From: a virus
Lineage: Duplodnaviria > Caudoviricetes
IMG/VR virus record: IMGVR_UViG_3300019371_000265
Span: 62,320 to 126,319 of that record
Direction: 5' to 3' (one strand)
DNA length: 64,000 bases
Shown here: piece after piece, positions 4,122 to 22,748 of the stretch
Layout of the letters: the number at the start of each line of letters is the position of its first letter
Numbering within the stretch: the stretch's first letter is position 1
Made by a program: the position numbers and the translations under genes
Notes under the pieces: generated by a model
The model's input: the letters and a program-made list of their open reading frames with translations, nothing else
What the model was told of the DNA's origin: nothing
Database searches by the model: none

Positions 4122-4925
4122 TTGCAGTTCGTAAAAGTACCAAGGGAACTAATTTATGCAAGCACAGTTAGTGAGAAGCGAGCTTCATGTTTCTCCTACC
4201 TGATATTTAATTCTACTCTTCAAGACACGGTTGCTTACAGCGCAAAACAAATAATAACGTGGTGTGGATTTAAGCCAAACTGGAATCGCAGTAAAACCAA
4301 AGCAAACATATACGATAAATTCTTAGACTGTATGACCTGGATATACCAAAATGGATACATCTTAAATTTTGAAGATACTGAATTTACCGGAAACAACTAC
4401 TGTTACTCACTTCTCAATACAGATAAAATGTTTCCATCAGATAATTTTGGAATAATTTATGATTTTGAAATTGAGAAAATAAAGAATTACAAATCAAAAT
4501 ACAGGACTCTCACTCAAAGCACTATATTGCTTATACTCTCATACATAAGAGTTAATCTATGGAAGCGGAGCGCTAATTTAGAATTTCAGGAAGAAAAGTT
4601 AAAAAAAGAAAAGCCTGAAATATGCAATAAACAAATATTGGAAATATCAAATGACATTGGGATTTCAGAAAGATTAATTTCTCGCTCCATAGATATTTTG
4701 GTCGAGTTAGACATTATTGACATGTCACCTATGCCACGATTCCAAGACGAACTGGGGAACTGGCACACTGAAGATAGCATATTTGTGAATAAATATAAGT
4801 TCATAAGAAACGAACATGGAGTAATTATAAAAGATAACTCCTATGATTATGAAAGTGAATTAAGTAATGGAATCGATTTTATTAGAAAACGAAAATATGT
4901 TAGTAGAAAATTTTATCAAAAATAA
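4122..4925 (+). CDS. Putative winged-helix replication initiator-like protein
   Basis: N-terminal FVKVPRELI and C-terminal wHTH-like ISNDIGISERLISRSIDILVELDII; TTG start with SD GAAGGTGA. Confidence 0.5.
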   Translation: MQFVKVPRELIYASTVSEKRASCFSYLIFNSTLQDTVAYSAKQIITWCGFKPNWNRSKTKANIYDKFLDCMTWIYQNGYILNFEDTEFTGNNYCYSLLNTDKMFPSDNFGIIYDFEIEKIKNYKSKYRTLTQSTILLILSYIRVNLWKRSANLEFQEEKLKKEKPEICNKQILEISNDIGISERLISRSIDILVELDIIDMSPMPRFQDELGNWHTEDSIFVNKYKFIRNEHGVIIKDNSYDYESELSNGIDFIRKRKYVSRKFYQK

Positions 4926-4944
4926 TAAGGAGAAAATACATACA

Positions 4945-5145
4945 ATGACAAAAACTAAGAAGACCACACCAAGCCCAGTTCCATCAAGAGAGGAATTTCA
5001 CAGAGAATTTGCAGGATTTGTATCAGAAAGAGACTTTGAATCAGACGAGCGTTATGGATATCGTACATATGGATACTCTTATCCAACACTAACAGAGTAT
5101 AAAAACCGTAAATCACGCAACAAATCACAGGGAGGAAATAAATAA
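4945..5145 (+). CDS. Hypothetical protein
   Basis: SD AAGGAG supports ATG at 4945. Confidence 0.65.
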   Translation: MTKTKKTTPSPVPSREEFHREFAGFVSERDFESDERYGYRTYGYSYPTLTEYKNRKSRNKSQGGNK

Positions 5146-5146
5146 T

Positions 5147-5452
5147 ATGACTACTATTGAACACAACCAGGACAACAATAATGAAAACTGTATTGAATTT
5201 CTTACAAACATGCGTAAAATTTCATTCACATTCACAGCTCGTAAGTGGATCAACAAGGTAAAGAAGTTAAAAGAGGAACATCCAGATGACATTGACTATG
5301 TGGAGAATCCTGATGGCAGTATCTTCGGTCACGCACCTATAAAATATTTTAAGTTGTCGGCTCCACGAAAAGTTGAATTATCTGAAGAACAGAAAATTGA
5401 GCGTGCTGCCAGAATGAGAACTATTGCAAAAAATAGAATTGATAACAAATAA
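5147..5452 (+). CDS. Hypothetical phage protein
   Basis: ORF track; SD GGAGG. Confidence 0.75.
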   Translation: MTTIEHNQDNNNENCIEFLTNMRKISFTFTARKWINKVKKLKEEHPDDIDYVENPDGSIFGHAPIKYFKLSAPRKVELSEEQKIERAARMRTIAKNRIDNK

Positions 5453-5596
5453 CATTGGCATGTTGAAAACTACAAGATGAGTATTCAAATCAAGCATCAA
5501 TTTCGGCTCAAACATATGAGCATGAACATTTTATCACTAACTACTTAAAACCGTAAATCGGTACAAATTTTATGAGAATATAAAGGAGAATATGAA

Positions 5597-5917
5597 ATGC
5601 CAAATTATAAGAAATTAACAAGTGTAGAGGTATCTGTAAATGAGAATTATGCAATTATCGCAGAAGTAAATAATGATGAAGTAGATACAAATAAATTCCA
5701 CTGTGATTTATGGATTCAGGATACGGAAGCTGGTTTAAGAATCCTGATCAAAGAAAATGTAATCGTAAACTCATCTCCCGCTTCTATGTGCGACAAGGTT
5801 GCAGGATATCTTGAAACTCTGATTAACAATGGATATTTCAGCGATGATGTCAAGACTATGGAAAACTTTATCAGCTACGTCGAAAAATTAAAAGACACTG
5901 TTAATAGTTTGAAATAA
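5597..5917 (+). CDS. Hypothetical protein
   Basis: ORF track; SD AAGGAG. Confidence 0.75.
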   Translation: MPNYKKLTSVEVSVNENYAIIAEVNNDEVDTNKFHCDLWIQDTEAGLRILIKENVIVNSSPASMCDKVAGYLETLINNGYFSDDVKTMENFISYVEKLKDTVNSLK

Positions 5918-6022
5918 AATTGATCGATTACATAAAAGGCATTGGCGTGCCTGTAGAACAAGACTTTGATGCAGAAATAAAATCCATTATAAAATAAAAA
6001 TAACTAGATAAGGGAGCATTTA

Positions 6023-9016
6023 ATGAACAATATAAATAGAGATGTTCGTTCAAAATACTCTACATATGGGAACGGGAAATCCATAATTGAAATTTTGAAC
6101 ATAGGATTTGAGCCACTATTAACAAAAAGGGAATACAGGATATACAAAGAAATCGGTGAGATTAAGTATAGAATCAATCCATATAAAAAATCGCTTGCAT
6201 TTATTGAATCAAAATTAGAAGATCCAAGTAACTCAAGTTATTATAATAAATGGCTTGAAGGATGGATTCCAGCATTAAAAGGCAAACTTAAAATTCTAAA
6301 AGACATTGAAAAGAAAAAAGATGATCAATTCAGAACTTTGCTTGCCAAAAACATTAACAAATGCCGCACATTATATACAAAGAGAGAATTCAAAAACGAG
6401 GATCAATTTCGTAATATCAAGATTTTTGAAAGTGACTTAACACGGTGTTTTGGTTGTAAAGACATAGAGCACAGCGATGATATTATAAGTGTGGTTACAT
6501 ACTATACTGAAATTTTTGATTCAATTATACATAATGGATTTTATTACAAGGGTAAAAAGTTCGTATTCTTCACAGCTGGAGCAGGACAGACACGTTGTAA
6601 AAAAAGCACATTCGTTTCAGAAGACAAACTAAACGAAAACTTTAACCGTCTTTTCTGTGGACTCACCAGAGAAGAAATAAACAGACAAGGGGGTATGAAT
6701 ACAAATAAATACTTGGCATACACCAGTCTGTGTCAAACTAATAGTGAGATTTGGTCAGATTTCAATATTGATAGAGCAATTGTTGTTGATGATATAGAAT
6801 ATCAGGTTCCAGATCAGCAAGTTAGATATATTTATACTGAAAGTCCAGAAGACAAAGAAAAAGTAAGATTGCTACAAGACAAAATTGACGACATAGACAA
6901 TAGGCTAAGTCTGATAAGAGAAAATAGAAAATCTCGCCCAAGGGGGTGTAGACGTAAGAAAGACGAGATTTTGTTGGAGAAACAAGAGGTATGTCAAAAT
7001 ACAAATCAGAAAGTGTTTTTGATTGGTGAGATAAACAAGATAAAGTCAAAATATCACAAGTCTGAGATTAAAAATATGCCAATCACCATTCCATTTACCG
7101 ATGGATTTGGCATTTCTCTTAAAAAAACGGATTCATCAATGATAAGGTTGCCATTTATCAAAGGATTAATTGCTTACTGTCCTCGCAGAGTATTTATGAA
7201 TTGGTGTTCAGAAAATAATATTCCAATACACCAAATTGTAGATATTTATGGTAAAAAGCATTCGATAACTGATGTGGATTATATTCTAACTAAATCACAA
7301 TTTAAGATGTGGAAGTATTATAACAACATAGAAGATGTTGATGGCAATGTGATTCAAACTGGATGGGAGGTTTACAAGGAGAATTTCAAAAAATATAAAT
7401 GTGATGCTTGTCGTTGCAACGTAGAAAGACATGTGAAATTAAACGCCAAGACAAATTATCAAACGCTACTTACTCTCACCACAGAAATGACTGATGATGA
7501 TATTCTTGAATTATCAAAATATGATATAACTAACTTAAACAGCATTGGTCGTAATGTGAACTCAATGTTAAATGTACTGGGAGCCGACGAAAAGAAAAAT
7601 GACAATCTCACATGGTTGCAGAAATCATTGATTATTTATCCTGAGATGTTAAAGGATTTTTATGTTAGAACTCTATTGAAAAACACCAAAGATAGTATGA
7701 TCAAAAAAATGAGAAGCGGAAAATTTAATATAAATGGTGCCTATACATTCGCTATACCAGACACATTAGCATGCTTGCAGTGGTGGTTTACTGATACGGA
7801 CAAATCGAATTTAGATAATTTTGGTTTTGTAAAAGAAGGTAACGTTTCTTGTGGATTATTTGATGACGAGGAAGAAGTTGACTGTCTCAGATCACCACAT
7901 CTTGACCACGCCCACTGTATTAGAAAAAATCAAACTGATGAAAATTCTAAAAAGTGGATTAAGTCATCTGGCGTATATATCGCTATGAAAGATATAATGA
8001 GCAAACTTCTTATGTACGATAATGACGGAGACAAATTGCTCTTACATAATAACAAAACTATAATCAATTGTGCTAAATCGTTCCAAAAAAAATACGGTAT
8101 GATCCCAAACTATTATGATATGCCAAAGGCCAATCCACAATTATTAACGAATAATTCTTTATTTGAAGGTATTGTTATGGCTTATCATCATGGCAATATT
8201 GGAACCCCCAGTAATGAAATAACAAAAGTTTTTATGACTTTAAATCCTAATAGTACAAGAGATGAAATTATGGAAGCTATCGATGTTGTTGCGCTGCGGT
8301 GCGCGGATGTGAACTATACAATTGACTTCGCAAAGACCTTATACAAACCAACTATTCCAGACGATGTAATTGCAAGATATAAAAAATATAGTGGCAGGAA
8401 AGTACCTCATTTTTTTATTCATGCGAAGAATAAAAAAGCAGATCAAGTTGAAAAAATTGGAGAATGCAATATTGATAGAATTTCAAATGTCGTAAAAAGT
8501 AATCGGATTGTTTTCAAGGATTTACTAGGATCTTATTCTTATAAAATGCTCACAAGTGATCCAGAAAATGTTGTTGATATTAACGAAGGTAAAGCGGTTG
8601 AAATCTTAAATTTATATAATGAACTAAACGGCGTTAATATTAGGAAATTGTCGCATTTAGATGTGGATTCTATGGAGATTGATGAAAAGAAAAAAACTCA
8701 GCTTAACTTGGAATATGATTCAAAGAAACAAAGAGATTTATTTTTAGAAATAGTAAACGAGTCGGTAGAATACATAACAGATGTGCTTGTCAAAGGGTTA
8801 CAAAATGATGTAAATAAAGACACGCTGTGGAGATTATTTGGAGACGTTATTTATAGTAATCTGGAAAGGAATTTAAAGGGTACAAAAATATGCTGTAAAT
8901 GCAATAATAGATTTAATTCCAATAATAATAAAATGAAATATTGTATGAACTGTGCATATGAAAATCAATTGAATTTAACAAAGAAATATAAAGAAAAGAT
9001 CAAATCTTGCATCTAA
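6023..9016 (+). CDS. yonO: YonO-like single-subunit (double-psi barrel) DNA-dependent RNA polymerase
   Basis: Catalytic DxDGD (LMYDNDGDKLL), LRSPH, FTDGFG, IRLPFIKG, NYTIDFAKT, C-terminal Zn ribbon CCKC..YCMNC; directly upstream of the late genes as in SPbeta. Confidence 0.88.
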   Translation: MNNINRDVRSKYSTYGNGKSIIEILNIGFEPLLTKREYRIYKEIGEIKYRINPYKKSLAFIESKLEDPSNSSYYNKWLEGWIPALKGKLKILKDIEKKKDDQFRTLLAKNINKCRTLYTKREFKNEDQFRNIKIFESDLTRCFGCKDIEHSDDIISVVTYYTEIFDSIIHNGFYYKGKKFVFFTAGAGQTRCKKSTFVSEDKLNENFNRLFCGLTREEINRQGGMNTNKYLAYTSLCQTNSEIWSDFNIDRAIVVDDIEYQVPDQQVRYIYTESPEDKEKVRLLQDKIDDIDNRLSLIRENRKSRPRGCRRKKDEILLEKQEVCQNTNQKVFLIGEINKIKSKYHKSEIKNMPITIPFTDGFGISLKKTDSSMIRLPFIKGLIAYCPRRVFMNWCSENNIPIHQIVDIYGKKHSITDVDYILTKSQFKMWKYYNNIEDVDGNVIQTGWEVYKENFKKYKCDACRCNVERHVKLNAKTNYQTLLTLTTEMTDDDILELSKYDITNLNSIGRNVNSMLNVLGADEKKNDNLTWLQKSLIIYPEMLKDFYVRTLLKNTKDSMIKKMRSGKFNINGAYTFAIPDTLACLQWWFTDTDKSNLDNFGFVKEGNVSCGLFDDEEEVDCLRSPHLDHAHCIRKNQTDENSKKWIKSSGVYIAMKDIMSKLLMYDNDGDKLLLHNNKTIINCAKSFQKKYGMIPNYYDMPKANPQLLTNNSLFEGIVMAYHHGNIGTPSNEITKVFMTLNPNSTRDEIMEAIDVVALRCADVNYTIDFAKTLYKPTIPDDVIARYKKYSGRKVPHFFIHAKNKKADQVEKIGECNIDRISNVVKSNRIVFKDLLGSYSYKMLTSDPENVVDINEGKAVEILNLYNELNGVNIRKLSHLDVDSMEIDEKKKTQLNLEYDSKKQRDLFLEIVNESVEYITDVLVKGLQNDVNKDTLWRLFGDVIYSNLERNLKGTKICCKCNNRFNSNNNKMKYCMNCAYENQLNLTKKYKEKIKSCI

Positions 9017-9341
9017 ATGTTCTATTTATATCCATATTATTTGCAAAATAATAATAAAACCTAGTAAAATCAAGGGTTTAAGAGGTTTTTTATCATTCTC
9101 TTAAAATTGAGATAATTACATAAAGGGGGAGTGTAAAAATGTAATTAAAATGTCAGAACGTGGTTGCATTCCCCTCTCTACACAAAAGATATCTTATACT
9201 TCATTCTTCATATGCTCTGCGCTTGGCTTTATATTCTGAGTTGAGCGCAGACGCTCTCCTTAGTCGGCAGAATTGTCGGCTATTTTTAATTAAACTACTC
9301 TCCCATCGGGAGAAATATAAAATGAAAGCGAGTGAATTCTT

Positions 9342-9518
9342 CTGAAATCAATTTCTAAAACAGACGTAGAAAAACTTATTAAAAATGGTTATTTGAGAAA
9401 CACATGTAATGGCTATATGAATCGTAAAGGTGAGCCGGTAGGTGTTTATCGTACTAAATCAAGTGCAAAGCGTAGATATATTGAGGATTGGTATGCTGAT
9501 AAGGCAAAGACCTTGTAA
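9342..9518 (+). CDS. 58-aa basic hypothetical protein with probable CTG start
   Basis: In-frame TGA at 9333; SD-like AAAGCGAGTGA; CTG AAA TCA ATT TCT ... ACC TTG TAA. Confidence 0.6.
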   Translation: MKSISKTDVEKLIKNGYLRNTCNGYMNRKGEPVGVYRTKSSAKRRYIEDWYADKAKTL

Positions 9519-9548
9519 TACTATATTTCAGGAAAGGTGGTTTTGACC

Positions 9549-10979
9549 ATCGCAAAGAAAAAAGACAAAATTACGGTATCATTTGTTGATGAACCTGCCA
9601 GTGAAGACGTAACGGGTAGCTGTGTTTATGTTGAAACTCCAAATCATAAGTTATTGTTGGATTTTGGTTTACATCAGTCAAATTGTAAATATGATGATTT
9701 CTTAGTAAACAATAGAAAACCTGCGAAATTCAAAGCAAAAGATATTGATTTGGTGTTTATATCACATTTGCACGGCGATCACTGTCTCGCGGTTCCAAAG
9801 TTATACAGAGATGGATTTAGAGGAGCTACGGTGCTTCCCATGAACTCTAAAAGCGTATTTAAGACTATGGAAAGTGATTCGGCATATATTGCAGAACGGG
9901 ATATAGTCGTTATAAACACTCAAAATAATAAAAATTATAGTCCACTTTATGATATATCAGACGTAAATACAATGCTTGAATACACGATTGAACGACCAAT
10001 TAATAAGAAAATCATGATAGATGACGAATTATCATTCATGTTTGTTCCAAGCGGTCATTTGCTTAATAGCTGCCAGATTGTTTTATATATTACGGTTGAT
10101 GGATTAACCAAAACAATCGTATATACGGGTGATATCGGAAATAAAAACATAGATAATTATTTTGTTGGAAAGTTTGAATCAGTGCCATCATGCGATTTAC
10201 TAATTGGTGAATCTACATACGGCGATAGACCTGACTTAAAAACTGGCAAAAAAGAACGTGAAAATGATTTAAATAAGTTGAAGTCAATCATTGATACTCA
10301 GATTAAAGAAATGAACGGGCGTGTACTCATTCCTTCATTTGCTCAATCTAGGATTCAACAGTTAGCATTAATGGTATATGAACTTTACAAAGATGAGCCA
10401 TGGCAGCCAAAGGTATACATTGATTCTCCTCTTGCAATTTCAATATTTAAAGATTATGCGGAAATATTGGAAGGTGAGGACAAGAAGAAATTCGATGAAA
10501 TGCTTAAATGGGATAATTTAGTGTTCGTAAAAGAACCAGAATCCAGTAAAGCACTGGTATCTTCCCCTGAACCTTGCTGCATCATGAGCACAGCGGGAAT
10601 GTGCCAGGTTGGAAGGGTACGTCATCATTTAAAGGCTTTAGTTGGAAATCCTAACGCTACTATCCTGTTCGTTGGATTTAGTACTGAAGGTAGTCTTGCG
10701 AGCATGTTAAAGGATAATAAGAGAAAAACAATCACCATCGACACGAAAGAATATAATTGTAGATGCAGTTCTTATAGTTTAAAAAGCATGTCTGGTCATG
10801 CTCCATTTGACCAATTAGTGAATATTTATTCATCTGTGAATTGTAATAAGATTGTGCTGCATCATGGAAGTAAACAAGCAAAAGAGACGTTGGCTACTGC
10901 ATTGAAAAAAGAATTAGAAAATAAATGCAAATCTACAAGAGTAGTCGTTGCTAATTCAAGTTTGAAATTCTCATTATAA
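9549..10979 (+). CDS. Metallo-beta-lactamase beta-CASP ribonuclease (YSH1/CPSF73-like)
   Basis: HLHGDH, SGH, TGD, ESTYG, SGHA, LHHG motifs intact, with His in motif C (RNA-type); SD GAAAGGTGG places the start at ATC 9549 (track uses GTG 9537 inside the SD). Confidence 0.9.
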   Translation: MAKKKDKITVSFVDEPASEDVTGSCVYVETPNHKLLLDFGLHQSNCKYDDFLVNNRKPAKFKAKDIDLVFISHLHGDHCLAVPKLYRDGFRGATVLPMNSKSVFKTMESDSAYIAERDIVVINTQNNKNYSPLYDISDVNTMLEYTIERPINKKIMIDDELSFMFVPSGHLLNSCQIVLYITVDGLTKTIVYTGDIGNKNIDNYFVGKFESVPSCDLLIGESTYGDRPDLKTGKKERENDLNKLKSIIDTQIKEMNGRVLIPSFAQSRIQQLALMVYELYKDEPWQPKVYIDSPLAISIFKDYAEILEGEDKKKFDEMLKWDNLVFVKEPESSKALVSSPEPCCIMSTAGMCQVGRVRHHLKALVGNPNATILFVGFSTEGSLASMLKDNKRKTITIDTKEYNCRCSSYSLKSMSGHAPFDQLVNIYSSVNCNKIVLHHGSKQAKETLATALKKELENKCKSTRVVVANSSLKFSL

Positions 10980-11006
10980 AATAAACTACAGGAAGAAGGT
11001 TTTATT

Positions 11007-11621
11007 ATAGACGAATTATTATTAACACTCCCAGCAAACTTAGAAAACATGCAGTTACCATCTCCAGAAATGGTGAATTATTGGAGATTAGCTGAAAATC
11101 GCACATTTTATATTGATTACGAGATTGATGAAGGTGTATTAGAAGTTCAGAGATCTATTATAAATATCAATCGTGAAGATAAAGGTAAACCAATTGAAGA
11201 AAGAATTCCGATTAAAATTTTTATTCAGTCTCCTGGCGGTTGTTTATATAGCACATATAGCTTAGCTGATACAATGCTTGCGTCCACTACTCCAATTGTT
11301 ACCGTAAATATGGGGATTGCGCTTTCCGGTGGATTTCTGTTATTTCTTGCGGGTACTCACAGATATTGCCTCTCTCGTTCTCAGGCTATGTTACATACCG
11401 GGTCTACTGGTGTTCAGGGAACGTTTGAGCAGGTAGAGGAATCACAGAAGACATACCGCAAACAAATTCAACAGATGTGTGACTATGTATTATCACGTAC
11501 AAAAATTGATCAGAAAACTTTCAACAAGAATAAGAGTAAAGATTGGTACTTTGATGCAGATGAGCAGGTTGAATATGGAATTGCTCATAGTATTCTCAAA
11601 AGTATTGATGAAATCATTTAA
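11007..11621 (+). CDS. ClpP-family serine protease
   Basis: IQSPGG, ALSGG (Ser), MLH (His), KDWYF (Asp); SD GGAAGAAGGT precedes in-frame ATA 11007, while ATG 11049 has no SD. Confidence 0.88.
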   Translation: MDELLLTLPANLENMQLPSPEMVNYWRLAENRTFYIDYEIDEGVLEVQRSIININREDKGKPIEERIPIKIFIQSPGGCLYSTYSLADTMLASTTPIVTVNMGIALSGGFLLFLAGTHRYCLSRSQAMLHTGSTGVQGTFEQVEESQKTYRKQIQQMCDYVLSRTKIDQKTFNKNKSKDWYFDADEQVEYGIAHSILKSIDEII

Positions 11622-11738
11622 TTTTTTATACCGATTTTTTCGCCTATTCTCACATATATAACACTAACATACATTTTGTAAATAGTATATGGTAATGTTT
11701 CACAAAAAATACAATGAACAATTGGAGGATTTATATAA

Positions 11739-11900
11739 ATGATTGAGAACCACATTTGTAAAAACTGTAATCATCACTCTGTCTGTAAGAATAATACGGT
11801 ACTCGTAAACTTTGATTCAGATTCAAAGAAATTTATCGGAGTAGATATTACTATTAAAAATTGCGATGCCTACTCTCCTATTGAAGAAAATGAAGAATAA
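11739..11900 (+). CDS. 53-aa Cys-rich protein (CKNCNHHSVC)
   Basis: SD GGAGG, manual translation. Confidence 0.7.
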   Translation: MIENHICKNCNHHSVCKNNTVLVNFDSDSKKFIGVDITIKNCDAYSPIEENEE

Positions 11901-11913
11901 GGTGGTGTGAACG

Positions 11914-12888
11914 ATAGAGACTATTAGATTAAATAATGAAACAGATTTTGAATATAAGTTGCGATTATGCAAGATGAAATTAAATAGAGAGATTGATTTG
12001 GATTGGCAGGAAATTGTTGATGTTCTGAATTTAGGCGTATCGGCAGATCACCTCAGAAAAACCGCTTATGGACTACTGGAATACGATGAATATATTCATG
12101 GATTTGAAGGGGTGGCTACTACCATTCTATCAATTTCTGATTTACATGTCCCGTTCCAATTACCAATAACTACATTTTCTGATTATGCAGGTAAAGTGGA
12201 TATATTGCAGATAAACGGAGACGTGGTGGATTGCCAAGCTCTTTCGAAGTTCCCAAAGCAGTATCGTATTTCGCCAAAAGAAGAAATAATTACGGCAAGA
12301 CAATATTTAATTGATCTTTTTGAGTATATAAATCCTAAAAAGGTTGTTATAAATTGGGGAAATCATGACAAGAGATTTGCAAATTATCTTGCCAAGAATT
12401 TAGATACAGATATGTTGGAACTTTTACCAGATACATCACTTGATCTCATTATTGATGATGGAATTAGACATTATAATAAGGTTTCAAAATCAAAAGTTTT
12501 TTATGAGCCATTGAAAAATGTATTCAAGGACACTATTGATATTGAATTCGTAGATGATTGGAAGTCTAAAATCGGAAAGACGTGGTTTGTGCATCCTCTT
12601 GCATATAAGAGTGGAACACTCGCTACAGCTGAACAGGCTAAGAATTATCTACAGGATACATATAAAGAATCTTTCGATACGGTAGTTATGGCTCATACAC
12701 ACGCAATAGGAGACACGAAGAAAGGCTTTATTAGATTGTTTGAACAAGGTGCATGTTGCGATGTGACAAAACTTAATTACATGGACGGACGGCTCTCGAA
12801 GCCACAAAAAGAAGGATTCTGTATTATCTGCCAGGATAATGATGGAAATTTAATTGAAGGCAAATCAAAAGTTGTAACGCTAAATTAA
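11914..12888 (+). CDS. Calcineurin-like metallophosphoesterase
   Basis: SDLH, NGDVVD, GNHD, AHTH motifs; SD AAGGTGGTG precedes in-frame ATA 11914 (in-frame TGA at 11908). Confidence 0.88.
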   Translation: METIRLNNETDFEYKLRLCKMKLNREIDLDWQEIVDVLNLGVSADHLRKTAYGLLEYDEYIHGFEGVATTILSISDLHVPFQLPITTFSDYAGKVDILQINGDVVDCQALSKFPKQYRISPKEEIITARQYLIDLFEYINPKKVVINWGNHDKRFANYLAKNLDTDMLELLPDTSLDLIIDDGIRHYNKVSKSKVFYEPLKNVFKDTIDIEFVDDWKSKIGKTWFVHPLAYKSGTLATAEQAKNYLQDTYKESFDTVVMAHTHAIGDTKKGFIRLFEQGACCDVTKLNYMDGRLSKPQKEGFCIICQDNDGNLIEGKSKVVTLN

Positions 12889-12911
12889 TCACACCAAAGG
12901 AGGTATTAAGT

Positions 12912-13136
12912 ATGTACAGGATTTTAGACTTAGCCGACAAACGTGATAACTACGCTAGTCTCTACAAATATATGATAAAGACCAATGAAGCGAATCAGGT
13001 TTTACCTGTTGAGTTTGCAACCGATACAGAACTTGATACTTTCGTTGATGACTTGTTAAATAATAAGGGTTACGCAAAATCAGATTTCATGATTATCACA
13101 ATCAAAGATTACGGAGTGAGTGCTGATATCGTCTAG
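12912..13136 (+). CDS. Hypothetical protein
   Basis: ORF track; SD AAGGAGG. Confidence 0.75.
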   Translation: MYRILDLADKRDNYASLYKYMIKTNEANQVLPVEFATDTELDTFVDDLLNNKGYAKSDFMIITIKDYGVSADIV

Positions 13137-13199
13137 TATATATCTGACTACTACTCTTCTATTAAAAAAAATAAAAGGATAAAAGGAGATTTACATAAT

Positions 13200-13481
13200 A
13201 TGAACAAACCACAGGTTTTAGAAGAAATTGTATTAAAAACAGGCGAGAGTAAGAAAGCTTCAGATGCAGTTATTTCTGCGCTTTTCGAAGTAATTTCAGA
13301 AACACTCGCAAAAGGTGAAGATGTACAGTTTGTTGGATTTGGCACATTTAAGGCATCAGAAGTGGGCGAAAAGGTTGGAACTATTCAGTTTGGCCAAAAA
13401 GCCGGACAGTCTTATACTACTCCTGCACATAAAAAAGTTTCATTTAAAGTGGGCAGCAAGTTAAAAGAGGCGGTGAAGTAG
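13200..13481 (+). CDS. hup: HU-family DNA-binding protein (SPbeta YonN-like)
   Basis: MNKPQVLEEI, VQFVGFGTF, SFKVGSKLKEAV. Confidence 0.92.
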   Translation: MNKPQVLEEIVLKTGESKKASDAVISALFEVISETLAKGEDVQFVGFGTFKASEVGEKVGTIQFGQKAGQSYTTPAHKKVSFKVGSKLKEAVK

Positions 13482-13482
13482 C

Positions 13483-13626
13483 GTGTATGATGAAATTATA
13501 AAGTCGGTTGATTTGTCGTCCGATGAGATTGAGTTATTAATTACTCTGCTCGAACCGGAGATTGATAATTGTATTTCGGTTGGCGCGGAATTAACAGTTA
13601 GAGGATTATTAGATAAGTTGATTTAA
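13483..13626 (+). CDS. 47-aa acidic hypothetical protein
   Basis: GTG start after SD GAGGCGGTGA; manual translation. Confidence 0.5.
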   Translation: MYDEIIKSVDLSSDEIELLITLLEPEIDNCISVGAELTVRGLLDKLI

Positions 13627-13742
13627 TTTAGAGGAGCAGATGTCACAGTCTGCTCTTTTATTATGCCATTTTGGCGACAGAGAAAACTGGTAGATGGATG
13701 AGAAGATTCTGCTATTGCAATGAACGAAAGGAAGTGATTTAT

Positions 13743-14786
13743 ATGGCTGCAAGAGAAACATATTTTAAGAAAATTACAAGTCCAGAATTAATAGAAAAAA
13801 TCAATCCAGTAAACAAGAAGTTTGTTGATAAATATTTACGCAACTTTGCAACTAAGCGTTCTCCTAGAAGCGTAAAGGCATATAAATCAAACTTCAATAT
13901 ATTCTTCTGCTGGAATATTCTTTATAACGATAACGCTGATTTTACTGATGTGAGAAAAATGGAAATGCAGGATTTCTTTGATTTTGGACTAACTGAGTTA
14001 AAATGGAGTCCAAATAGATATGCACAAGTACATAGTAGTTTGTCTGAGCTTTCGAAATTTATTGAGAAATTCTACGATGAACAGTATCCGACATATAGGA
14101 ACTTGATGATTTATATTGAGAAATTACCAAAGAAGGCTGTACGTAAAAAGTCAGTGTTTAAGAAAGAAGAACTGGATCATTTGATGGAATGTTTAGAAGG
14201 AAGACCTAACGAACAGTGTCTTTTGGCTTTAATTATGAGTTCTGGAACAAGAATTAGTGAACTTGTACGATTTACTACAGACTTAATTGACTATGACAAT
14301 ATTGCTTTTGACGGATTGTTCTTGGAAACTACAGAAGAAATCCAAGTTAAAGGTCATGGAGTTGATGGAAATCATATAAAGAGATATTTGATAAAAGACT
14401 TATTTGTTCCGTGGTATGAGCAATATTTGCCAGTTAGAAAAGAAATTATGGATAAAAATGGGGAAGAGCATAACTATATTTTCGTAAAAAGAGATGGAAA
14501 GCCCGCTACGGTTCATACAATAAGCGCATGGATGGAAAAATGGGACAATTATTTATCTCAGCATTGGTATGCTCATGCAGGAAGACATTTCTGGTGCAGT
14601 TACCTTATTGGTATTGGCTTAGAAAAACAGTTGGTGCAAGAACTTCAGTCATGGTCTAGCGATTCTCTCGTAGATCTATACAATGACAACACCGCCAAAG
14701 ATGTAAAATGGAAAGGTCTTGAAAAATTAAAAGTACAATTGGAAAAAGAAAAACAATCTCTGATTGAAGAAACTGACTCCGATTAA
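13743..14786 (+). CDS. Tyrosine recombinase (Xer/integrase family)
   Basis: SGTRISEL (R), VKG (K), HAGRH, W, LY catalytic set; SD GAAAGGAAGTGA supports ATG 13743. Confidence 0.9.
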   Translation: MAARETYFKKITSPELIEKINPVNKKFVDKYLRNFATKRSPRSVKAYKSNFNIFFCWNILYNDNADFTDVRKMEMQDFFDFGLTELKWSPNRYAQVHSSLSELSKFIEKFYDEQYPTYRNLMIYIEKLPKKAVRKKSVFKKEELDHLMECLEGRPNEQCLLALIMSSGTRISELVRFTTDLIDYDNIAFDGLFLETTEEIQVKGHGVDGNHIKRYLIKDLFVPWYEQYLPVRKEIMDKNGEEHNYIFVKRDGKPATVHTISAWMEKWDNYLSQHWYAHAGRHFWCSYLIGIGLEKQLVQELQSWSSDSLVDLYNDNTAKDVKWKGLEKLKVQLEKEKQSLIEETDSD

Positions 14787-16525: not shown

Positions 16526-17302
16526 ATGAGGCGAATTGGAAACGCGAAAAAAGATACCGCGGAAGATGTTTTTATGTCAATGATGGATAATATTGATGGA
16601 ATGGTAAAATTTATAATAGAAATCGAAGAATTAGAAAAAAGAGAATTTGAATGTGAAGATGTATATAATTATGTAATGAAAAATGAGAATGGATTAGTCA
16701 AGATTGGTATAAGTAAAGATATAGACACTAGGCAGAATACGTTGGAGCATACTAGCGGATATAAAATTATTGATATATTTTATACTAAGCCAAAGAGAAA
16801 AGCTTTGATTGTAGAGGCGGAATTACATAGATACTTTTCAAATTACAGAAAACTTGGAGAATGGTTTTATTTGGAGTTCGATGACGCAGTTGAAAAGACT
16901 AAAGAATTATCAAGCATAGATTGTGAAATCGAAGATGAGAAAAATAAATCATATGAAGATCATATCTTAGATGTACTGATACTTATCGGCAAATTGGGTA
17001 AAAGTGATGAAGACATATTAGATTATCTTGTTGTATCAAAAACTTTAAAATGTGGAGACATAAATAGAATACAAAAATTAGCAAAACTTTACGCTGAAAA
17101 ATATATAGAAACGGGTGAAGAAGTATTTAACTTGTTTACGTTATATTTATTATTAAAGATTAAAACTGATTATAAAATGGACGTTGTAAAATTTGAAAAT
17201 GGTGACGAATTATTCATTTCAGGATATACCGCTTGTTTCTATGAAAAGAAAACTGATTTTTGTGAATGTTTAGATTTCTATAGCTCAATATATGGAAAAT
17301 AG
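16526..17302 (+). CDS. GIY-YIG (T5orf172-like) nuclease-domain protein
   Basis: YVMKNENGLVKIGIS..R...EAELHRYF..RKLGEWF. Confidence 0.8.
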   Translation: MRRIGNAKKDTAEDVFMSMMDNIDGMVKFIIEIEELEKREFECEDVYNYVMKNENGLVKIGISKDIDTRQNTLEHTSGYKIIDIFYTKPKRKALIVEAELHRYFSNYRKLGEWFYLEFDDAVEKTKELSSIDCEIEDEKNKSYEDHILDVLILIGKLGKSDEDILDYLVVSKTLKCGDINRIQKLAKLYAEKYIETGEEVFNLFTLYLLLKIKTDYKMDVVKFENGDELFISGYTACFYEKKTDFCECLDFYSSIYGK

Positions 17303-18229: not shown

Positions 18230-19249
18230 TTGGCTCAAGGTGGCAGACCAAAGGGAAGTATCAAACCAAAGGAAAGTTTATTGGTAATTGCAACAGCAAA
18301 TAAAGATGCAGTTACTAAACCAACAATAATCTCTCCTAAAAAAACAGAAGTTGAAGAAAGCTTAATTAAAAAACCACACAAATGCGTAACATGTGGAACT
18401 AGGTATGCGAAACAAGAAGGTAATTTTTCGTTCAGTCAGTCTCCGTTCTTTAAGGGGAATAATTCATATTTGCCGATTTGTAATGATTGCATTGATTCAC
18501 TGGTTAAACAATATCAAGAAATACTTGGAGATCAAGATGCAGCAATTAAAAGAGTTTGCCTACACTGGGATATTTATCAGAATGATAGTATTTTATCTGC
18601 AAGCAAAAAAAGCGGTGCTCAACGTTCACGTATAAAAGAATATGTTCGCCAGTGTAATTTAAATCAGAATTCAGGTAAAACATATGATGATTATTTATAT
18701 GAACAGAACAATAACCTTATACTGTCAGAATCAGATATTGAGAATATGGAAGAGCCAGACGCTAAAAAATTACAAAAAAATATGAAGAGATGGGGAATCG
18801 GTTATTCTGAAGCAGAATATGACATGCTTAATGAGCATTATAAGCTTTATAAAGATAGTATTGATGAGGAAAATGCAACACAGGCTACATTGTTAAACGA
18901 TCTATGTGAACAATATGTGCTTAAAGCAAGAGCCAGGCAAGATAAAGATATGGATAGATACGACAAAGTATCTAAACTATACCAACAAACACTTGGAAAC
19001 GCAAATTTAAAACCAAAAACAAATGGTGATACAGCGATAAACAATCCAGATGAGTGTTGGGGTAATTTCACTAAAATTATAGAAACTATGTCTCCTGCCG
19101 AATATTTTAAGGATAAGTCAATATTCAAAGATTATGATGAACAAGATGAATATTATAGGCGTTTTGTAGAAAGACCAACAAACAATTTAATAAATGGTAC
19201 TTCAGCAATGGATGAAGAATATTCCATCAAGGTAACGGAAGATGAATAA
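18230..19249 (+). CDS. Probable terminase small subunit (SPbeta YonG position), with CxxC pairs
   Basis: Overlaps the terL start; CVTC and CNDC. Confidence 0.6.
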   Translation: MAQGGRPKGSIKPKESLLVIATANKDAVTKPTIISPKKTEVEESLIKKPHKCVTCGTRYAKQEGNFSFSQSPFFKGNNSYLPICNDCIDSLVKQYQEILGDQDAAIKRVCLHWDIYQNDSILSASKKSGAQRSRIKEYVRQCNLNQNSGKTYDDYLYEQNNNLILSESDIENMEEPDAKKLQKNMKRWGIGYSEAEYDMLNEHYKLYKDSIDEENATQATLLNDLCEQYVLKARARQDKDMDRYDKVSKLYQQTLGNANLKPKTNGDTAINNPDECWGNFTKIIETMSPAEYFKDKSIFKDYDEQDEYYRRFVERPTNNLINGTSAMDEEYSIKVTEDE

Positions 19250-21044
19250 CGAAAGTTTATTAGATGAACGTCAATTAAATGCCCATAAGAATGTTACAGA
19301 GGGACATTGGTTATCAAACAAAAATAATTTAATGCATTTTTACGAATGGAATACGTTTTTTAAAAGAAATATAAATCGTTATGCTGAAATGTATTTTGGT
19401 TTTAATTTATATCCATACCAACACTTGGAATTATATGAAATGAACACCAATTCTTCAAATGTAATAGTTGGTTCACGAGCAGTTGCCAAATCATATGTTG
19501 TTGCGATTTTTGGTTGTAGCAAAGCATCTCTGTATCCAAACAGCAAAATTGTAATAGCAAGCGCAACTAAAGGACAATCTAAACTTATTGTTACTGAAAA
19601 AATAAAAAATGAACTTATGAGTCAATCTCCTAATCTCCGGAGGGAAATACTTAGCATTAAAGATAATCAAAACGATACAGTTGTAAATTTTAGAAATGGA
19701 AGCACGATTAAGGTTGTTCCTGCGAATGATAATGCCAGAGGTAACAGAAGTACGTGTATTATATATGAAGAGTTTCGTATGATAGATAAGTTTGTTGTAG
19801 ACTCAGTTCTGTCGCCATTCCAAATTATAAGACCAGTCCCATATTTGAAATTCGACGAGTATTCAGCTCTGGCGGAAGAACCAACGGATATTTATATAAG
19901 TTCGGCGTGGTACTCATCTCACTGGATGGGGAAACTATTAGAAGATACCATGGTAGAAGTACGTAATGGAAAAGATCAGTGTGTCCTTGGATTTGATTAC
20001 AGTTTAACCTTGAAACATAATATAAAAACACGAAATCAGATATATAAGGATATGAAGAAGTTTGACCCCATTACATTTGCTATTGAATACAAGAATCAAA
20101 TGATAAAAGAAAATACTACGGCTTATTTCAAATACAAAATGTTTACTGATAATCAAAGATTAAGAAAACCATTTTATCCAAGATTAACATTAGATGTTCT
20201 GAATAGAAAAAAGAACCCACACGCTATACCAAAACAAGATGGAGAAATAAGAATAATATCTTGTGATATGGCTTTTGTTGAAAATAAAAATAATGATAAT
20301 TCAATTTTCAGCTGCATTAGGCTTATTCCAGAAAGTATTACCTATACATCTCAAAGTATAGAGGGATCTGGCAAGGAAATTAAACAAGGATATCGCAGAA
20401 TGCTATGTTATCTTGAAGCAATACAAGGCGGAGATACTACAAAGCAAGCCATTCGTATAAAACAGCTTTTTGAGGACTTTGATGCGGACTATTGTGTTCT
20501 TGATATGCGTAATGGTGGTATAGCTGTTTATGACTTATTGGCAAAAGTAATGTACGACGAAGAGAGAGATAAAGAATATAGACCGTGGGTTTGTTTCAAT
20601 GATGAAAAAATAGCGAATCGTATTAAGAGTGCGGGGGCAACCCCAGTACTCTTTTCTATTGTGGCATCTCAAAAACTCAACAGCGATATAGCACAAGAAT
20701 TTAGGTTAAGTCTGGTTGAGAATAAAATAGATTTTCTTGTTGGATATAATGATGCTGTGGAAAATATTTTACCAAAGATACCAGAATATATGGAGAATTT
20801 TGATTTAGATAGTCAGTTATTCTATGAAGCTCCATTCCTTGACACTCAAGAATTAATTTCAGAAAGTGTTGAGTTGGTATATGAGAAGAAACCACAAACA
20901 GATATCGTAGTTATTAGCGAGCAAGGTTCTAACAGAAAGGATAGGTATACATCGGTTTCTTATGGAAATTATTTTGCCAGTTTACTTGAGCAAGATTTAC
21001 TGTCTGATTCTTCAGACTATGATTTTCTACCACTATATAATTAA
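19242..21044 (+). CDS. terL: Terminase large subunit
   Basis: Walker A SRAVAKS, ARGNR, Walker B IIYEE, ISSA, nuclease ISCDMA and KDRY. Confidence 0.9.
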   Translation: MNNESLLDERQLNAHKNVTEGHWLSNKNNLMHFYEWNTFFKRNINRYAEMYFGFNLYPYQHLELYEMNTNSSNVIVGSRAVAKSYVVAIFGCSKASLYPNSKIVIASATKGQSKLIVTEKIKNELMSQSPNLRREILSIKDNQNDTVVNFRNGSTIKVVPANDNARGNRSTCIIYEEFRMIDKFVVDSVLSPFQIIRPVPYLKFDEYSALAEEPTDIYISSAWYSSHWMGKLLEDTMVEVRNGKDQCVLGFDYSLTLKHNIKTRNQIYKDMKKFDPITFAIEYKNQMIKENTTAYFKYKMFTDNQRLRKPFYPRLTLDVLNRKKNPHAIPKQDGEIRIISCDMAFVENKNNDNSIFSCIRLIPESITYTSQSIEGSGKEIKQGYRRMLCYLEAIQGGDTTKQAIRIKQLFEDFDADYCVLDMRNGGIAVYDLLAKVMYDEERDKEYRPWVCFNDEKIANRIKSAGATPVLFSIVASQKLNSDIAQEFRLSLVENKIDFLVGYNDAVENILPKIPEYMENFDLDSQLFYEAPFLDTQELISESVELVYEKKPQTDIVVISEQGSNRKDRYTSVSYGNYFASLLEQDLLSDSSDYDFLPLYN

Positions 21045-21059
21045 GGAGGTGATACTTAA

Positions 21060-22748
21060 ATGCCAGAAACAACAAATGAACCCAGGAAAAGAGGTAGACC
21101 AAAAGGTTCGAAAAGTAAAAACAGCGTCAATGACATTAATACTACAGCAGAAATTAATCAAGGAAGCATCACATTGGACGACAAATTCTCACATGAATTT
21201 AACTCGGCAATTCCAGTATCACTCTCCGTTGGCGATACAGTAATAGATTGTCCAGTAGACTTAGATATGATATCGGAGTATAAAGCAAATCCAATGATCT
21301 ATAATCAGCAGTTACGTAGATTATCTTGGTGGGCTTATCGTACAAATGGAACCATCTCTAGCGGTCTTGACTATATGAGGTCAATGCATACTCTGGATAA
21401 AGTTGTTTATACAACGGTTCCTAACACATCTGATTCATTTAAGAAACGCAGAATGTCAAATAAAAAGAAATTCGAATCTGCTCTCGATGCAATTAAATAT
21501 AAGAAATTTATTCGTGATGCCTTATTAAAAGATTTTAATGATGGCATTATTTTTTATTATCTTGAAACTACAAAACCAGTAGCAGAAAATAAGAAATTTC
21601 TTTCAGACGAAGAAGTCTTGAATATATTCGAGATTAATGAATTGGGCATAAATGCATCAATTATAGCGTTGCCAGTTGATTATTGCAAAATTATAAGTAG
21701 GAAGAATGGTTCTCCGCTAGTAGCATTTGATTTAAGGTACTTCTCTCAATATTGTGGAGACAGATTAAAAAGAAAACTTAGATCATTCCCAAAAGAAATC
21801 AGAGATGGTTGGGTCAAATATGATGCTGGAAAACAGATTCAACCGTGGTTGCTCTTGAATAATGATAATACAATTTGTCACAAGATTAAGTCTGCTGATA
21901 GTGAACCATGGGGAATACCTATGCCGATTGCTTCTCTTGATGACATTTTATATGCCAATCATTTTATCAATACGAAAAGAAGTGTCTTAGACGATTTAAA
22001 TAACCAAATTTTCTATGAGACTTATCCAGAAGGTGAAAGGAAAGGCAGTTCTTCTCTCTCTCAGCCTCAACAGACAGCGCAGCATAATATGATTAAAGGC
22101 GCTTTATTTAACAATAACAATCGTTATGGTAAAGCATTTTTCTCTTTAGCTACTGGTACTAAACTTGACCAAATAAAAGTTGATACCACTATTTTTGATG
22201 AAAAAAATGAGGTAAATGTAAAAAATAATATATCTCAAGACCTCGGTATCGAAGCGGCTATTGTTGGTGGAAAATCAAGTGCTAACTTTGCTACGGCTAC
22301 GCTTAATATTGAATGTATCTCCTCTTCTATTTATTCGTACATTACAGAAATTGTAGACGAATTAAATAAGGTGATAAACGCCAATATCATAAATGATAAT
22401 TCATGCCCGACCAAGATGTCAATATTACCGACTACTTTTGTAAATAGAGACAAAATGGTTAAGTATATGAGTGATTTATATGCAAGGGGTAAAGGTAGTT
22501 TACAGGCGTGGATTTCGAGTACAGGAGTTGACCCAGAATGCTATTTAGCTCTCATGGAAGAAGAATTAGAACAGGACGTTGAGAATCGCTTTCCCGTACA
22601 TAAAATTAGTTATAATTTGTCTAGCAAAGATTCTGCTCCAAGTGATATTGATAAAAGCGCTGGGAGACCTGAAGATACAAGTAATTCAAACGAAAATACA
22701 ATTGTATCAAAATCAAATGACGCTAATGGAATGCCAAAAACAAAATAG
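21060..22748 (+). CDS. Portal protein
   Basis: Position after terL, size, PWGIP motif. Confidence 0.75.
   Translation: MPETTNEPRKRGRPKGSKSKNSVNDINTTAEINQGSITLDDKFSHEFNSAIPVSLSVGDTVIDCPVDLDMISEYKANPMIYNQQLRRLSWWAYRTNGTISSGLDYMRSMHTLDKVVYTTVPNTSDSFKKRRMSNKKKFESALDAIKYKKFIRDALLKDFNDGIIFYYLETTKPVAENKKFLSDEEVLNIFEINELGINASIIALPVDYCKIISRKNGSPLVAFDLRYFSQYCGDRLKRKLRSFPKEIRDGWVKYDAGKQIQPWLLLNNDNTICHKIKSADSEPWGIPMPIASLDDILYANHFINTKRSVLDDLNNQIFYETYPEGERKGSSSLSQPQQTAQHNMIKGALFNNNNRYGKAFFSLATGTKLDQIKVDTTIFDEKNEVNVKNNISQDLGIEAAIVGGKSSANFATATLNIECISSSIYSYITEIVDELNKVINANIINDNSCPTKMSILPTTFVNRDKMVKYMSDLYARGKGSLQAWISSTGVDPECYLALMEEELEQDVENRFPVHKISYNLSSKDSAPSDIDKSAGRPEDTSNSNENTIVSKSNDANGMPKTK

Follow-up and report, generated by a model that had tools for sequence, protein, structure and literature searches.

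The stretch at positions 6023-12888 of the window, the latter being the whole 64 kb of DNA that was analysed, is best explained as the junction between the RNA polymerase gene and the late genes of a large temperate phage that resembles SPbeta and has a spore-forming gut Firmicute as its host. The window represents the right-hand 64 kb of the 126-kb IMG/VR provirus record IMGVR_UViG_3300019371_000265 (positions 62,320-126,319). The host is taken to be a spore-forming Firmicute because a SpoIID gene is present in the host flank of the provirus record, and related prophages and contigs stem mostly from human-gut samples, one of them residing in Mediterraneibacter hominis. Five genes, which encode the polymerase YonO, a beta-CASP nuclease, a ClpP-like protease, a protein of 53 amino acids (aa) and a phosphoesterase, follow each other on the plus strand with intact catalytic motifs. 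Coordinates, Pfam and PHROG matches and alignments thereby bear out an earlier note, made from the sequence alone, which had described a co-directional run of five genes with the DxDGD motif of YonO, the nuclease motifs and the ClpP triad intact. The features of this stretch are as follows.

6023-9016, plus strand: YonO-type single-chain two-barrel RNA polymerase (predicted), 997 aa; phrog_8308; DNDGD at residues 666-670 and a C-terminal CxxC...CxxC
9107-9144, plus strand: conserved motif TTGAGATAAnnACATAAAGGGG(N)ATG-TAA, a strong Shine-Dalgarno sequence with a start-stop mini open reading frame (ORF), recurring 3' of window-type YonO alleles
9261-9290, plus strand: terminator-like hairpin with a T run (9 bp, 4 GC pairs) from a consensus scan, between yonO and the nuclease gene
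9296-9390, plus strand: leader segment travelling with the nuclease gene, DNA identity 72-74% across loci
9537-10979, plus strand: minimal CPSF73/aCPSF/TTHA0252-type beta-CASP metallo-nuclease (predicted), 480 aa; Pfam, PDB profiles, NCBIfam, AlphaFold2 and Foldseek
11049-11621, plus strand: ClpP-like serine protease, 190 aa, intact triad; Pfam, NCBIfam, alignment to solved ClpP
11739-11900, plus strand: four-Cys protein of 53 aa, from its translation
11959-12888, plus strand: calcineurin-like metallophosphoesterase, 309 aa, a short YonJ-family variant; Pfam Metallophos, hhalign

By homology and by its DxDGD loop, the 997-aa protein is predicted to be a YonO-type single-chain two-barrel RNA polymerase, and enzymes of this type are, to our knowledge, the simplest known relatives of cellular RNA polymerases. 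It matches phrog_8308 with an E value of 2.7e-171, shares 37-38% identity with SPbeta YonO over 80% of its length (tblastn, E 6e-86) and is 36% identical to the homologue of Clostridium phage D-1873. The residues D666, D668 and D670 of the DNDGD motif are invariant in 19 very divergent YonO homologues (13-38% identical), and the basic residues R375 and K380 of the second barrel are likewise invariant. YonO has been described to bypass pause signals and to possess no RNA cleavage activity, while its promoter and any YonO factors were left open in the same study (PMC5467207). In many related loci two or three ORFs, in many cases separated by an unrelated ORF, take the place of a single yonO gene, which may reflect a group I intron with a homing endonuclease, an intein or a true split (L001, L016, L037, L046, L057, L059, L062, L070, L076, L078 and L080), and that of phage c-st is split as well (CST179/178/177; L085, 2560-6493).

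The gene following yonO, for which TTG at position 9543, located 6 nt after GGAAAGG, is the likelier start codon, encodes, as judged by sequence and predicted fold, a minimal CPSF73/aCPSF/TTHA0252-type beta-CASP enzyme whose catalytic residues are all preserved. The earlier label of a CPSF73/YSH1-type protein with all motifs intact was thus correct, as indicated by PDB profiles, NCBIfam, Foldseek and the invariant residues. Pfam identified the domains Beta-Casp (3.7e-25), RMMBL (6.5e-8) and Lactamase_B (6e-7). The residues H77-x-H79-x-D81-H82, H174, D199, E225, H421 and H442/H443 are invariant in 16 homologues, and the motifs match those of TTHA0252 residue for residue, comprising the metallo-beta-lactamase (MBL) motifs 1-4 and the beta-CASP motifs A (E225), B (H421) and C (H443). 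A profile search against PDB yielded Cas14 (9.6e-41), TTHA0252 (3.1e-40), aCPSF (7.5e-38), CPSF73 (3.8e-29), FttA (2.4e-27), INTS11 (2.3e-26) and Ysh1, with neither RNase J nor SNM1/Artemis among the matches, and in NCBIfam the Cas14 model NF045584 (E 2.5e-70) and the aCPSF1 model (1.2e-56) were matched at scores far below both family cut-offs. Structural modeling using AlphaFold2 resulted in a model with a predicted local distance difference test score (pLDDT) of 83 and a predicted template modeling score (pTM) of 0.87. Its top Foldseek match was TTHA0252 with template modeling (TM) scores of 0.78/0.86, followed, among the top matches listed, by aCPSF, CPSF73, Ysh1, FttA, INTS11 and Cas14. 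Motif C of beta-CASP enzymes holds a His in RNA-acting members and a Val in the DNA branch of SNM1/Artemis; the phage protein has the His and an RMMBL domain, both marks of the RNA-acting branch, and it may be regarded as an active-looking CPSF-type RNA nuclease. Membership in RNase J was rejected, as RNase J is absent from the PDB sequence matches and from the listed top fold matches, and a ligase-associated DNA exonuclease was rejected on the basis of a partial match to TIGR04122 (E 1.3e-8, versus 2.5e-70 for Cas14 and 1.2e-56 for aCPSF1).

The nearest solved relative is TTHA0252 of Thermus thermophilus (PDB 2dkf, 3iek; E 2e-40 over the full length, about 26-30% identity), which similarly consists of a single MBL and beta-CASP module without extra domains and with aligned metal and motif residues. 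It differs in being a cellular housekeeping enzyme that is not phage-borne, is about 50 residues shorter and has no link to a polymerase gene. No further domain precedes the MBL domain of the phage nuclease, whose residues 21-449 align with residues 8-406 of TTHA0252, and the alignment with aCPSF begins at residue 190 of the latter. It is therefore a bare catalytic module, with no N-terminal KH domains and no C-terminal domain. FttA/aCPSF1, CPSF73, Ysh1 and INTS11 belong to the same clade by profile and fold. However, aCPSF1/FttA possess N-terminal KH domains, and the eukaryotic CPSF73 and INTS11 have a C-terminal domain and a paralogous partner (CPSF100 and INTS9, respectively), all of which the phage enzyme lacks. 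Cas14 of type VII CRISPR-Cas (PDB 8yhd, 9j9e) is the best PDB and NCBIfam profile match over the nuclease module, but the phage protein scores 237 bits against a family cut-off of 800 and misses the C-terminal part of about 180 residues. PHROG and Pfam scans of the window neighbours and of a few gene clusters of related loci revealed no Cas family, and no CRISPR array was noted. Some genomes of the family of M. hominis, namely G012 (C1:288870-290222), G017, G121, G139, G149 and G264, encode a second, host-type beta-CASP protein with a length of about 545 aa and a score of about 226-244 bits with the profile of the phage enzymes; the last five of these genomes have no YonO.

Seen from the nuclease side, the gene is genomically tied to yonO. 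A search of IMG/VR with an alignment of homologues retrieved 70 loci, mostly on contigs of about 40-206 kb, whose ORFs were searched with an iterated YonO profile. Loci were counted as informative if the nuclease match was strong and the upstream DNA extended over at least 7 kb; in all 59 of them, yonO is located upstream on the same strand. In 58 of these it ends 0.5-5.6 kb before the nuclease gene, and in L069 the distance is about 12 kb. A yonO gene similarly lies 2.7 kb upstream of a 35%-identical nuclease in GenBank MT835469, and a pair of both genes was identified in a Mediterraneibacter hominis genome. In Clostridium phage c-st a split yonO, an insertion sequence (IS) and an HU gene are followed by a nuclease fragment that is cut by another IS, and the bacterial genome G003 carries both genes on one contig, 48 kb apart. 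In a tree, the YonO-linked nucleases are all united in a single clade (local support 100%). Phage beta-CASP proteins that are more distant (no more than 31% identical) fall outside this clade, and the records of these outgroup proteins have no YonO within 16-25 kb upstream. Hence, elements with a YonO gene are the only ones in which the nuclease clade was found; the nuclease gene follows yonO on the same strand in almost all cases and precedes yonJ in all but one lineage. An independent distribution of nuclease and YonO, which the earlier note had named as the result that would speak against its proposal, was not observed.

The nuclease is also by far the most conserved gene of the region, with a median pairwise identity of 54-70% compared to 17-32% for its neighbours (YonO 19%, ClpP 32%, YonJ 26%, HU 29%, recombinase 22% and terminase 20%). 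Three complete phages with a nuclease 59-72% identical to that of the window have an undetectable portal protein and a terminase that is either undetectable or at most 30% identical. The nuclease adjoins YonO lineages which are 14-20% identical to each other.

Coupling of the two genes on the DNA is loose, as a 520-bp spacer with a terminator-like hairpin separates them. From the nuclease gene to the recombinase gene (9537-14786), the intergenic gaps amount to 24-190 bp and a strong plus-strand terminator is absent. The spacer appears to be composed of parts with different histories. DNA homology between the window and the related locus L001 breaks at 5994, 29 bp before the YonO start, and resumes at 9195, 180 bp past the stop (L001 interval 4137-9592). 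Both flanks of yonO display 84-93% DNA identity, the YonO alleles themselves are only about 23% identical, and yonO thus seems to behave as a swappable cassette. The motif at 9107-9144, consisting of TTGAGATAAnnACATAAAGGGG, 6-9 nt and a start codon directly followed by TAA, resides 100-130 nt past the YonO stop in 7/7 window-type loci, that is, loci with a YonO 58-78% identical to that of the window. The motif accompanies this YonO allele also in loci with unrelated genes downstream, occurs only once in the window and has further copies at L087 13075-13094, L091 13057-13076 and L092 4645-4664; no copy was found in SPbeta or D-1873, so that it could not be linked to the mapped SPbeta start site. 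We consider the motif a candidate YonO promoter or a candidate 5' leader or stabiliser of the late transcript. If it were the cognate promoter or leader, the exchange of polymerase alleles would be explained, the hairpin at 9261-9282 would stop the host polymerase with YonO reading through, and the nuclease gene would be the first late gene. The hairpin is part of a stretch (9195-9328) that is 86% identical in L001, and an Rfam scan gave a tRNA-Pro gene as its sole match and no family at the hairpin. Counterparts of the segment 9296-9390 (72-74% DNA identity) precede the nuclease gene by about 180-270 bp in L023-L029, L045, L056, L072 and L167, all of which have unrelated YonO alleles. A small ORF at 9393-9518 is seen in only one other locus.

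Of the genes downstream of the nuclease, that encoding ClpP is accessory. Pfam CLP_protease is matched at 5.9e-26 over model positions 10-180 of 182, and the triad aligns with that of solved ClpP (Ser in GIALSGG, His in MLHTG and Asp in KDWYF). In NCBIfam, the ClpP subfamily scores 86 bits versus 47.5 for the ClpP-related head protease, all below the equivalog cut-offs. The protein can be assigned by its sequence to peptidase family S14 as a divergent member. A role as prohead protease is unlikely, given these scores, the location 9 kb before the portal gene and the lack of a ClpP gene in a third of the loci. Of 73 nuclease loci, 48 have this gene, usually directly 3' of the nuclease gene. In a second sample of 80 IMG/VR loci anchored on YonO, which was drawn with a closer YonO alignment and is biased towards window-like YonO, ClpP occurs in 7/11 nuclease-positive versus 4/69 nuclease-negative loci. 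The accessory unit is therefore the nuclease with or without ClpP, inserted between yonO and yonJ. The adjacent 53-aa protein has four Cys residues including a CxxC and is 89% identical in L001 and 40% identical in L046. It gave no Pfam match above threshold and no PHROG family, and its gene fills the slot of the small proteins that precede yonJ elsewhere.

The phosphoesterase, which the earlier note had grouped with the nuclease, belongs elsewhere. It matches Pfam Metallophos (3.2e-9) and has the five phosphoesterase motifs as well as an N-terminal helical domain in common with YonJ. Throughout 28 relatives D61/H63, N135-H136, H212 and H248 do not vary and H246 hardly does, and G87-D88 of the GD motif is kept in all of the four closest relatives. 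Comparison by hhalign relates the protein to a family of about 400 aa in the same slot (97.9%, E 3.6e-13), and this metallophosphoesterase (MPE) family in turn to SPbeta YonJ (100%, E 6.5e-41 over 387 columns). In a direct comparison with YonJ only the N-terminal 37 columns match, so that the link runs via the family of about 400 aa, whose coiled-coil insert of about 80 residues, shared with YonJ, is missing from the window protein. The fold is that of a generic MPE with TM scores of 0.3-0.46 to GpdQ, Mre11, PolD DP1, Vps29 and MJ0936. The protein is thus, to judge from its homology, a short homologue of SPbeta YonJ. A YonJ-type gene was identified in 72/73 nuclease loci and, often immediately, after yonO in 57 of the 60 YonO-anchored loci with enough downstream DNA, most of which are without nuclease. 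The gene is therefore part of the backbone of YonO phages and a nuclease-specific partnership of the phosphoesterase was rejected. The YonJ type, consisting of an N-terminal helical domain, a coiled coil and an MPE domain, is the most constant neighbour of YonO (e.g. L171 14704-15921, which is SPbeta yonJ, and L105 12909-14096). Ligase-associated Lhr/MPE/Exo clusters pair a beta-CASP exonuclease with a phosphoesterase in DNA repair; an equivalent pairing was rejected here, as the phosphoesterase is YonJ and occurs with or without the nuclease.

Clustering of ORFs over 81 loci revealed a common gene order, in which upstream genes including that for dCMP deaminase are followed by the genes for YonO (sometimes together with HU), nuclease, ClpP, a small protein, the protein of about 400 aa, HU, a 206-aa protein, the recombinase, a phrog_3314 protein, terminase and portal. 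The corresponding downstream features of the window are listed below.

13200-13481, plus strand: HU-type DNA-binding protein, the counterpart of SPbeta YonN; Pfam Bac_DNA_binding 6.9e-20
13671-14786, plus strand: tyrosine recombinase between HU and the packaging genes; Pfam Phage_integrase 8e-16; same slot in 45 related loci
18230-22748, plus strand: start of the packaging block with phrog_3314 protein, large terminase and portal, equivalent to SPbeta yonG-yonF-yonE; PHROGs, order kept in related loci, SPbeta map

The genes yonO and HU and that of the YonJ-type phosphoesterase form the backbone of the phage supergroup, and an HU gene follows yonO also in SPbeta, c-st and D-1873. The junction yonO-yonN-yonK-yonJ of SPbeta exhibits the same backbone of YonO, HU and YonJ-type phosphoesterase, followed by terminase and portal. 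It differs by an ORF-free, structured gap of 1.7 kb at the position where the present phage group has nuclease and ClpP, and it has no beta-CASP gene. The YonO start of SPbeta lies between yonN and yonK-yonJ, the latter being the first YonO-transcribed genes of the late operon (Forrest et al. 2017, PMC5467207). The gap itself (L171 12815-14496, yonN-yonK) is G+C-rich and looks highly structured, and the YonO start and an unannotated RNA have been reported there. In different phages the interval from yonO to yonJ is variable and contains HU, PhoH, IS elements, homing-endonuclease-like genes and many small genes. The tyrosine recombinase of the window and of the 45 related loci has a mid-genome position between HU and packaging genes, away from the prophage ends, and may serve in dimer resolution or integration. 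Homing-endonuclease-like genes are located inside the late region of the window at 16526-17302 and 22966-24078 (T5orf172/MUG113 GIY-YIG-type and HNH), and copies of the HNH family are dispersed over the related loci, some between yonO and the nuclease gene.

With respect to function, we tentatively propose, at a probability of about 0.35, that the nuclease is an RNA processing or clearing enzyme of the late phase that acts through RNA. It would be made together with YonO or just after it, possibly from the first gene of the YonO-driven late transcript if the motif at 9107-9144 is a promoter or leader. In the late phase, the enzyme would act on RNA by endonucleolytic cleavage and subsequent 5'-to-3' degradation. 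The likeliest substrates would be the very long transcripts of a polymerase that ignores pauses and is unable to cleave its own RNA; such transcripts may be processed, or stalled complexes may be cleared in a torpedo-like fashion. RNase J1 of Bacillus subtilis is reported to be such a 'torpedo' that removes stalled RNA polymerase (Sikova et al. 2020). By analogy, the mode proposed for the phage nuclease could resemble that of RNase J1, a 5'-to-3' beta-CASP exonuclease which acts via RNA without dedicated docking, although RNase J represents a different branch of the beta-CASP enzymes. The proposal is supported by the family and the intact active site of the nuclease, its confinement to YonO elements, the repeated association in the same slot, the exceptional constraint, the position between yonO and yonJ, and the published properties of YonO.

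A number of observations weigh against this proposal. Most YonO phages do not carry the nuclease: it is found in only 11/80 of the YonO-anchored loci and missing from 69/80, it is absent from all 24 Bacillus SPbeta-type records including SPbeta itself, and no nuclease was detected in Psychrobacillus phage Perkons, in D-1873 or in the Enterocloster phages. Similarly, in the family of M. hominis, 34 of 301 species genomes harbour YonO and only one of these 34 a nuclease of the clade, which leaves 33/34 without. The closest YonO relative of the window (L087, 80% identical over aligned columns) has no nuclease within 10 kb downstream, and accounting for the presence of the nuclease on a tree of 93 distinct YonO proteins takes at least 5-7 changes by gain or loss, each of them in the same slot. 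As most YonO phages, SPbeta included, have no nuclease, YonO transcription would, by this genomic proxy, not generally need it. Thus, of the co-occurrence and synteny of YonO and nuclease put forward for testing in the earlier note, the direction from nuclease to YonO (59/59) stands, while that from YonO to nuclease (11/80, 1/34 and 0/24 in Bacillus) does not. On this genomic evidence the nuclease cannot be a general termination system of YonO, given its absence from SPbeta, the Bacillus records, 69/80 loci and 33/34 genomes. In addition, the inheritance of the nuclease within a single phage supergroup that keeps its gene order could be enough to account for the confinement. Recruitment of FttA, CPSF73 and INTS11 to their polymerases relies on KH domains, a C-terminal domain and a partner subunit, none of which the phage enzyme has, and the frequent pairing with ClpP suits a general degradative takeover of the host at least as well.

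Polymerase and nuclease alleles further differ in their relationships. In L001, identity to the window amounts to 100% for the terminase, 93% for the portal and 95% for the nuclease, but YonO is split and only about 23% identical. Conversely, L088-L093 combine YonO proteins 58-68% identical to that of the window with nucleases of 32-36% identity. Both cases count against the proposed tie as well. The correlations of identity between the nuclease and its neighbours are weak, in part due to saturation of the neighbours, and the case for reassortment rests on the explicit locus examples. As judged from these, nuclease and YonO alleles evidently reassort freely, which argues against an allele-specific docking and against a co-adapted protein pair, for which the missing KH and C-terminal domains likewise give no support. 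Such reassortment would be expected of an enzyme that acts through RNA or on a conserved target of the host. Therefore, the nuclease would work through RNA without allele-specific contact to YonO and would represent an optional aid, given that most YonO phages have none.

Among the alternatives, it is possible, and nearly as likely as RNA processing or clearing in the late phase, that nuclease and ClpP form a pair for the takeover of the host. Here, the nuclease would degrade host mRNA for shut-off and nucleotide recycling, and the phage ClpP would act with host Clp ATPases to remove or redirect host proteins; the link to YonO would be indirect, since the loss of host transcripts is tolerable for a phage that brings its own polymerase. 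The two genes are adjacent in most loci and ClpP is enriched next to the nuclease (48/73; 7/11 versus 4/69), the very high conservation of the nuclease fits a conserved and generic substrate, and the lack of allele-specific co-evolution with YonO and the minimal architecture without recruitment domains are in line with this explanation. However, a generic shut-off RNase should be useful to any phage, yet in spite of the heavy mosaicism this clade was confined to YonO elements and to a single slot, and the nuclease is without ClpP in a third of the loci. There is also no sign of how phage transcripts would be spared. It is unlikely, in turn, that the nuclease is a lineage-restricted accessory gene with no tie to transcription, for example in counter-defence against an RNA-based host system or as a DNA nuclease, and owes its place to a recombination hot spot between yonO and yonJ. 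The varied contents of this slot and the repeated gain and loss of the nuclease would agree with such a role, and some beta-CASP enzymes such as SNM1/Artemis are established to act on DNA. Yet the motif C His and the RMMBL domain are those of the RNA-acting branch, the ligase-associated DNA exonuclease model matches only weakly and partially (E 1.3e-8), and a constraint of this strength is unusual for genes of an arms race.

Two further possibilities follow from the relationship to the transcript-ending enzymes of archaea and eukaryotes. FttA/CPSF73-type enzymes cut nascent RNA behind a two-barrel RNA polymerase, and the phage gene is genomically tied to a two-barrel polymerase; the likeness is one of sequence and fold, however, and YonO works without the nuclease in most relatives. 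It might be speculated, as an improbable variant, that this CPSF73/FttA-type phage nuclease cuts nascent YonO RNA and subsequently drives the polymerase from its template, whichever of the interchangeable polymerase alleles is present; the Shine-Dalgarno and start-stop element, located 5' in the late transcript, could in this case protect the message of the phage. The least probable of the explanations considered is the main idea of the earlier note, a dedicated cleavage-coupled terminator or 3'-end factor, here one which docks on YonO as FttA does on the archaeal RNA polymerase and CPSF73/INTS11 on Pol II. The common enzyme clade and the strict one-direction genomic linkage to yonO would be in accordance with such a factor, but YonO functions without it in SPbeta and most relatives, YonO forms only 14-23% identical are swapped while the nuclease stays 59-95% identical, and the KH or C-terminal docking domains are missing.

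Our search of the literature yielded no paper that links a beta-CASP enzyme to YonO or describes a phage CPSF73-type nuclease. The nuclease is a new phage-borne member of a well-known family, and the one-way linkage to YonO, the extreme conservation of the nuclease and the corrected structure of the module are new observations, while a functional partnership of nuclease and YonO is put forward as a hypothesis. Even if the nuclease were an enzyme of host shut-off, the module would have to be redrawn: the neighbour that YonO has almost universally is YonJ rather than the nuclease, which together with ClpP constitutes an optional insert, and yonO moves as a cassette that includes a short conserved motif downstream of it, a candidate promoter. 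A cultured carrier exists in the prophage of Mediterraneibacter hominis NSJ-55 (locus L002). A nuclease from the clade of archaeal and eukaryotic transcript-ending enzymes that is tied to YonO and represents the most constrained gene of the region thus provides a testable handle on how YonO transcripts start, end and are processed. If the enzyme acts on YonO transcripts, the cleavage-coupled handling of nascent RNA would extend to bacterial viruses, and cutting of the RNA followed by chasing of the polymerase, if true, would be the bacterial-virus version of the cleavage-and-torpedo termination of archaea and eukaryotes.

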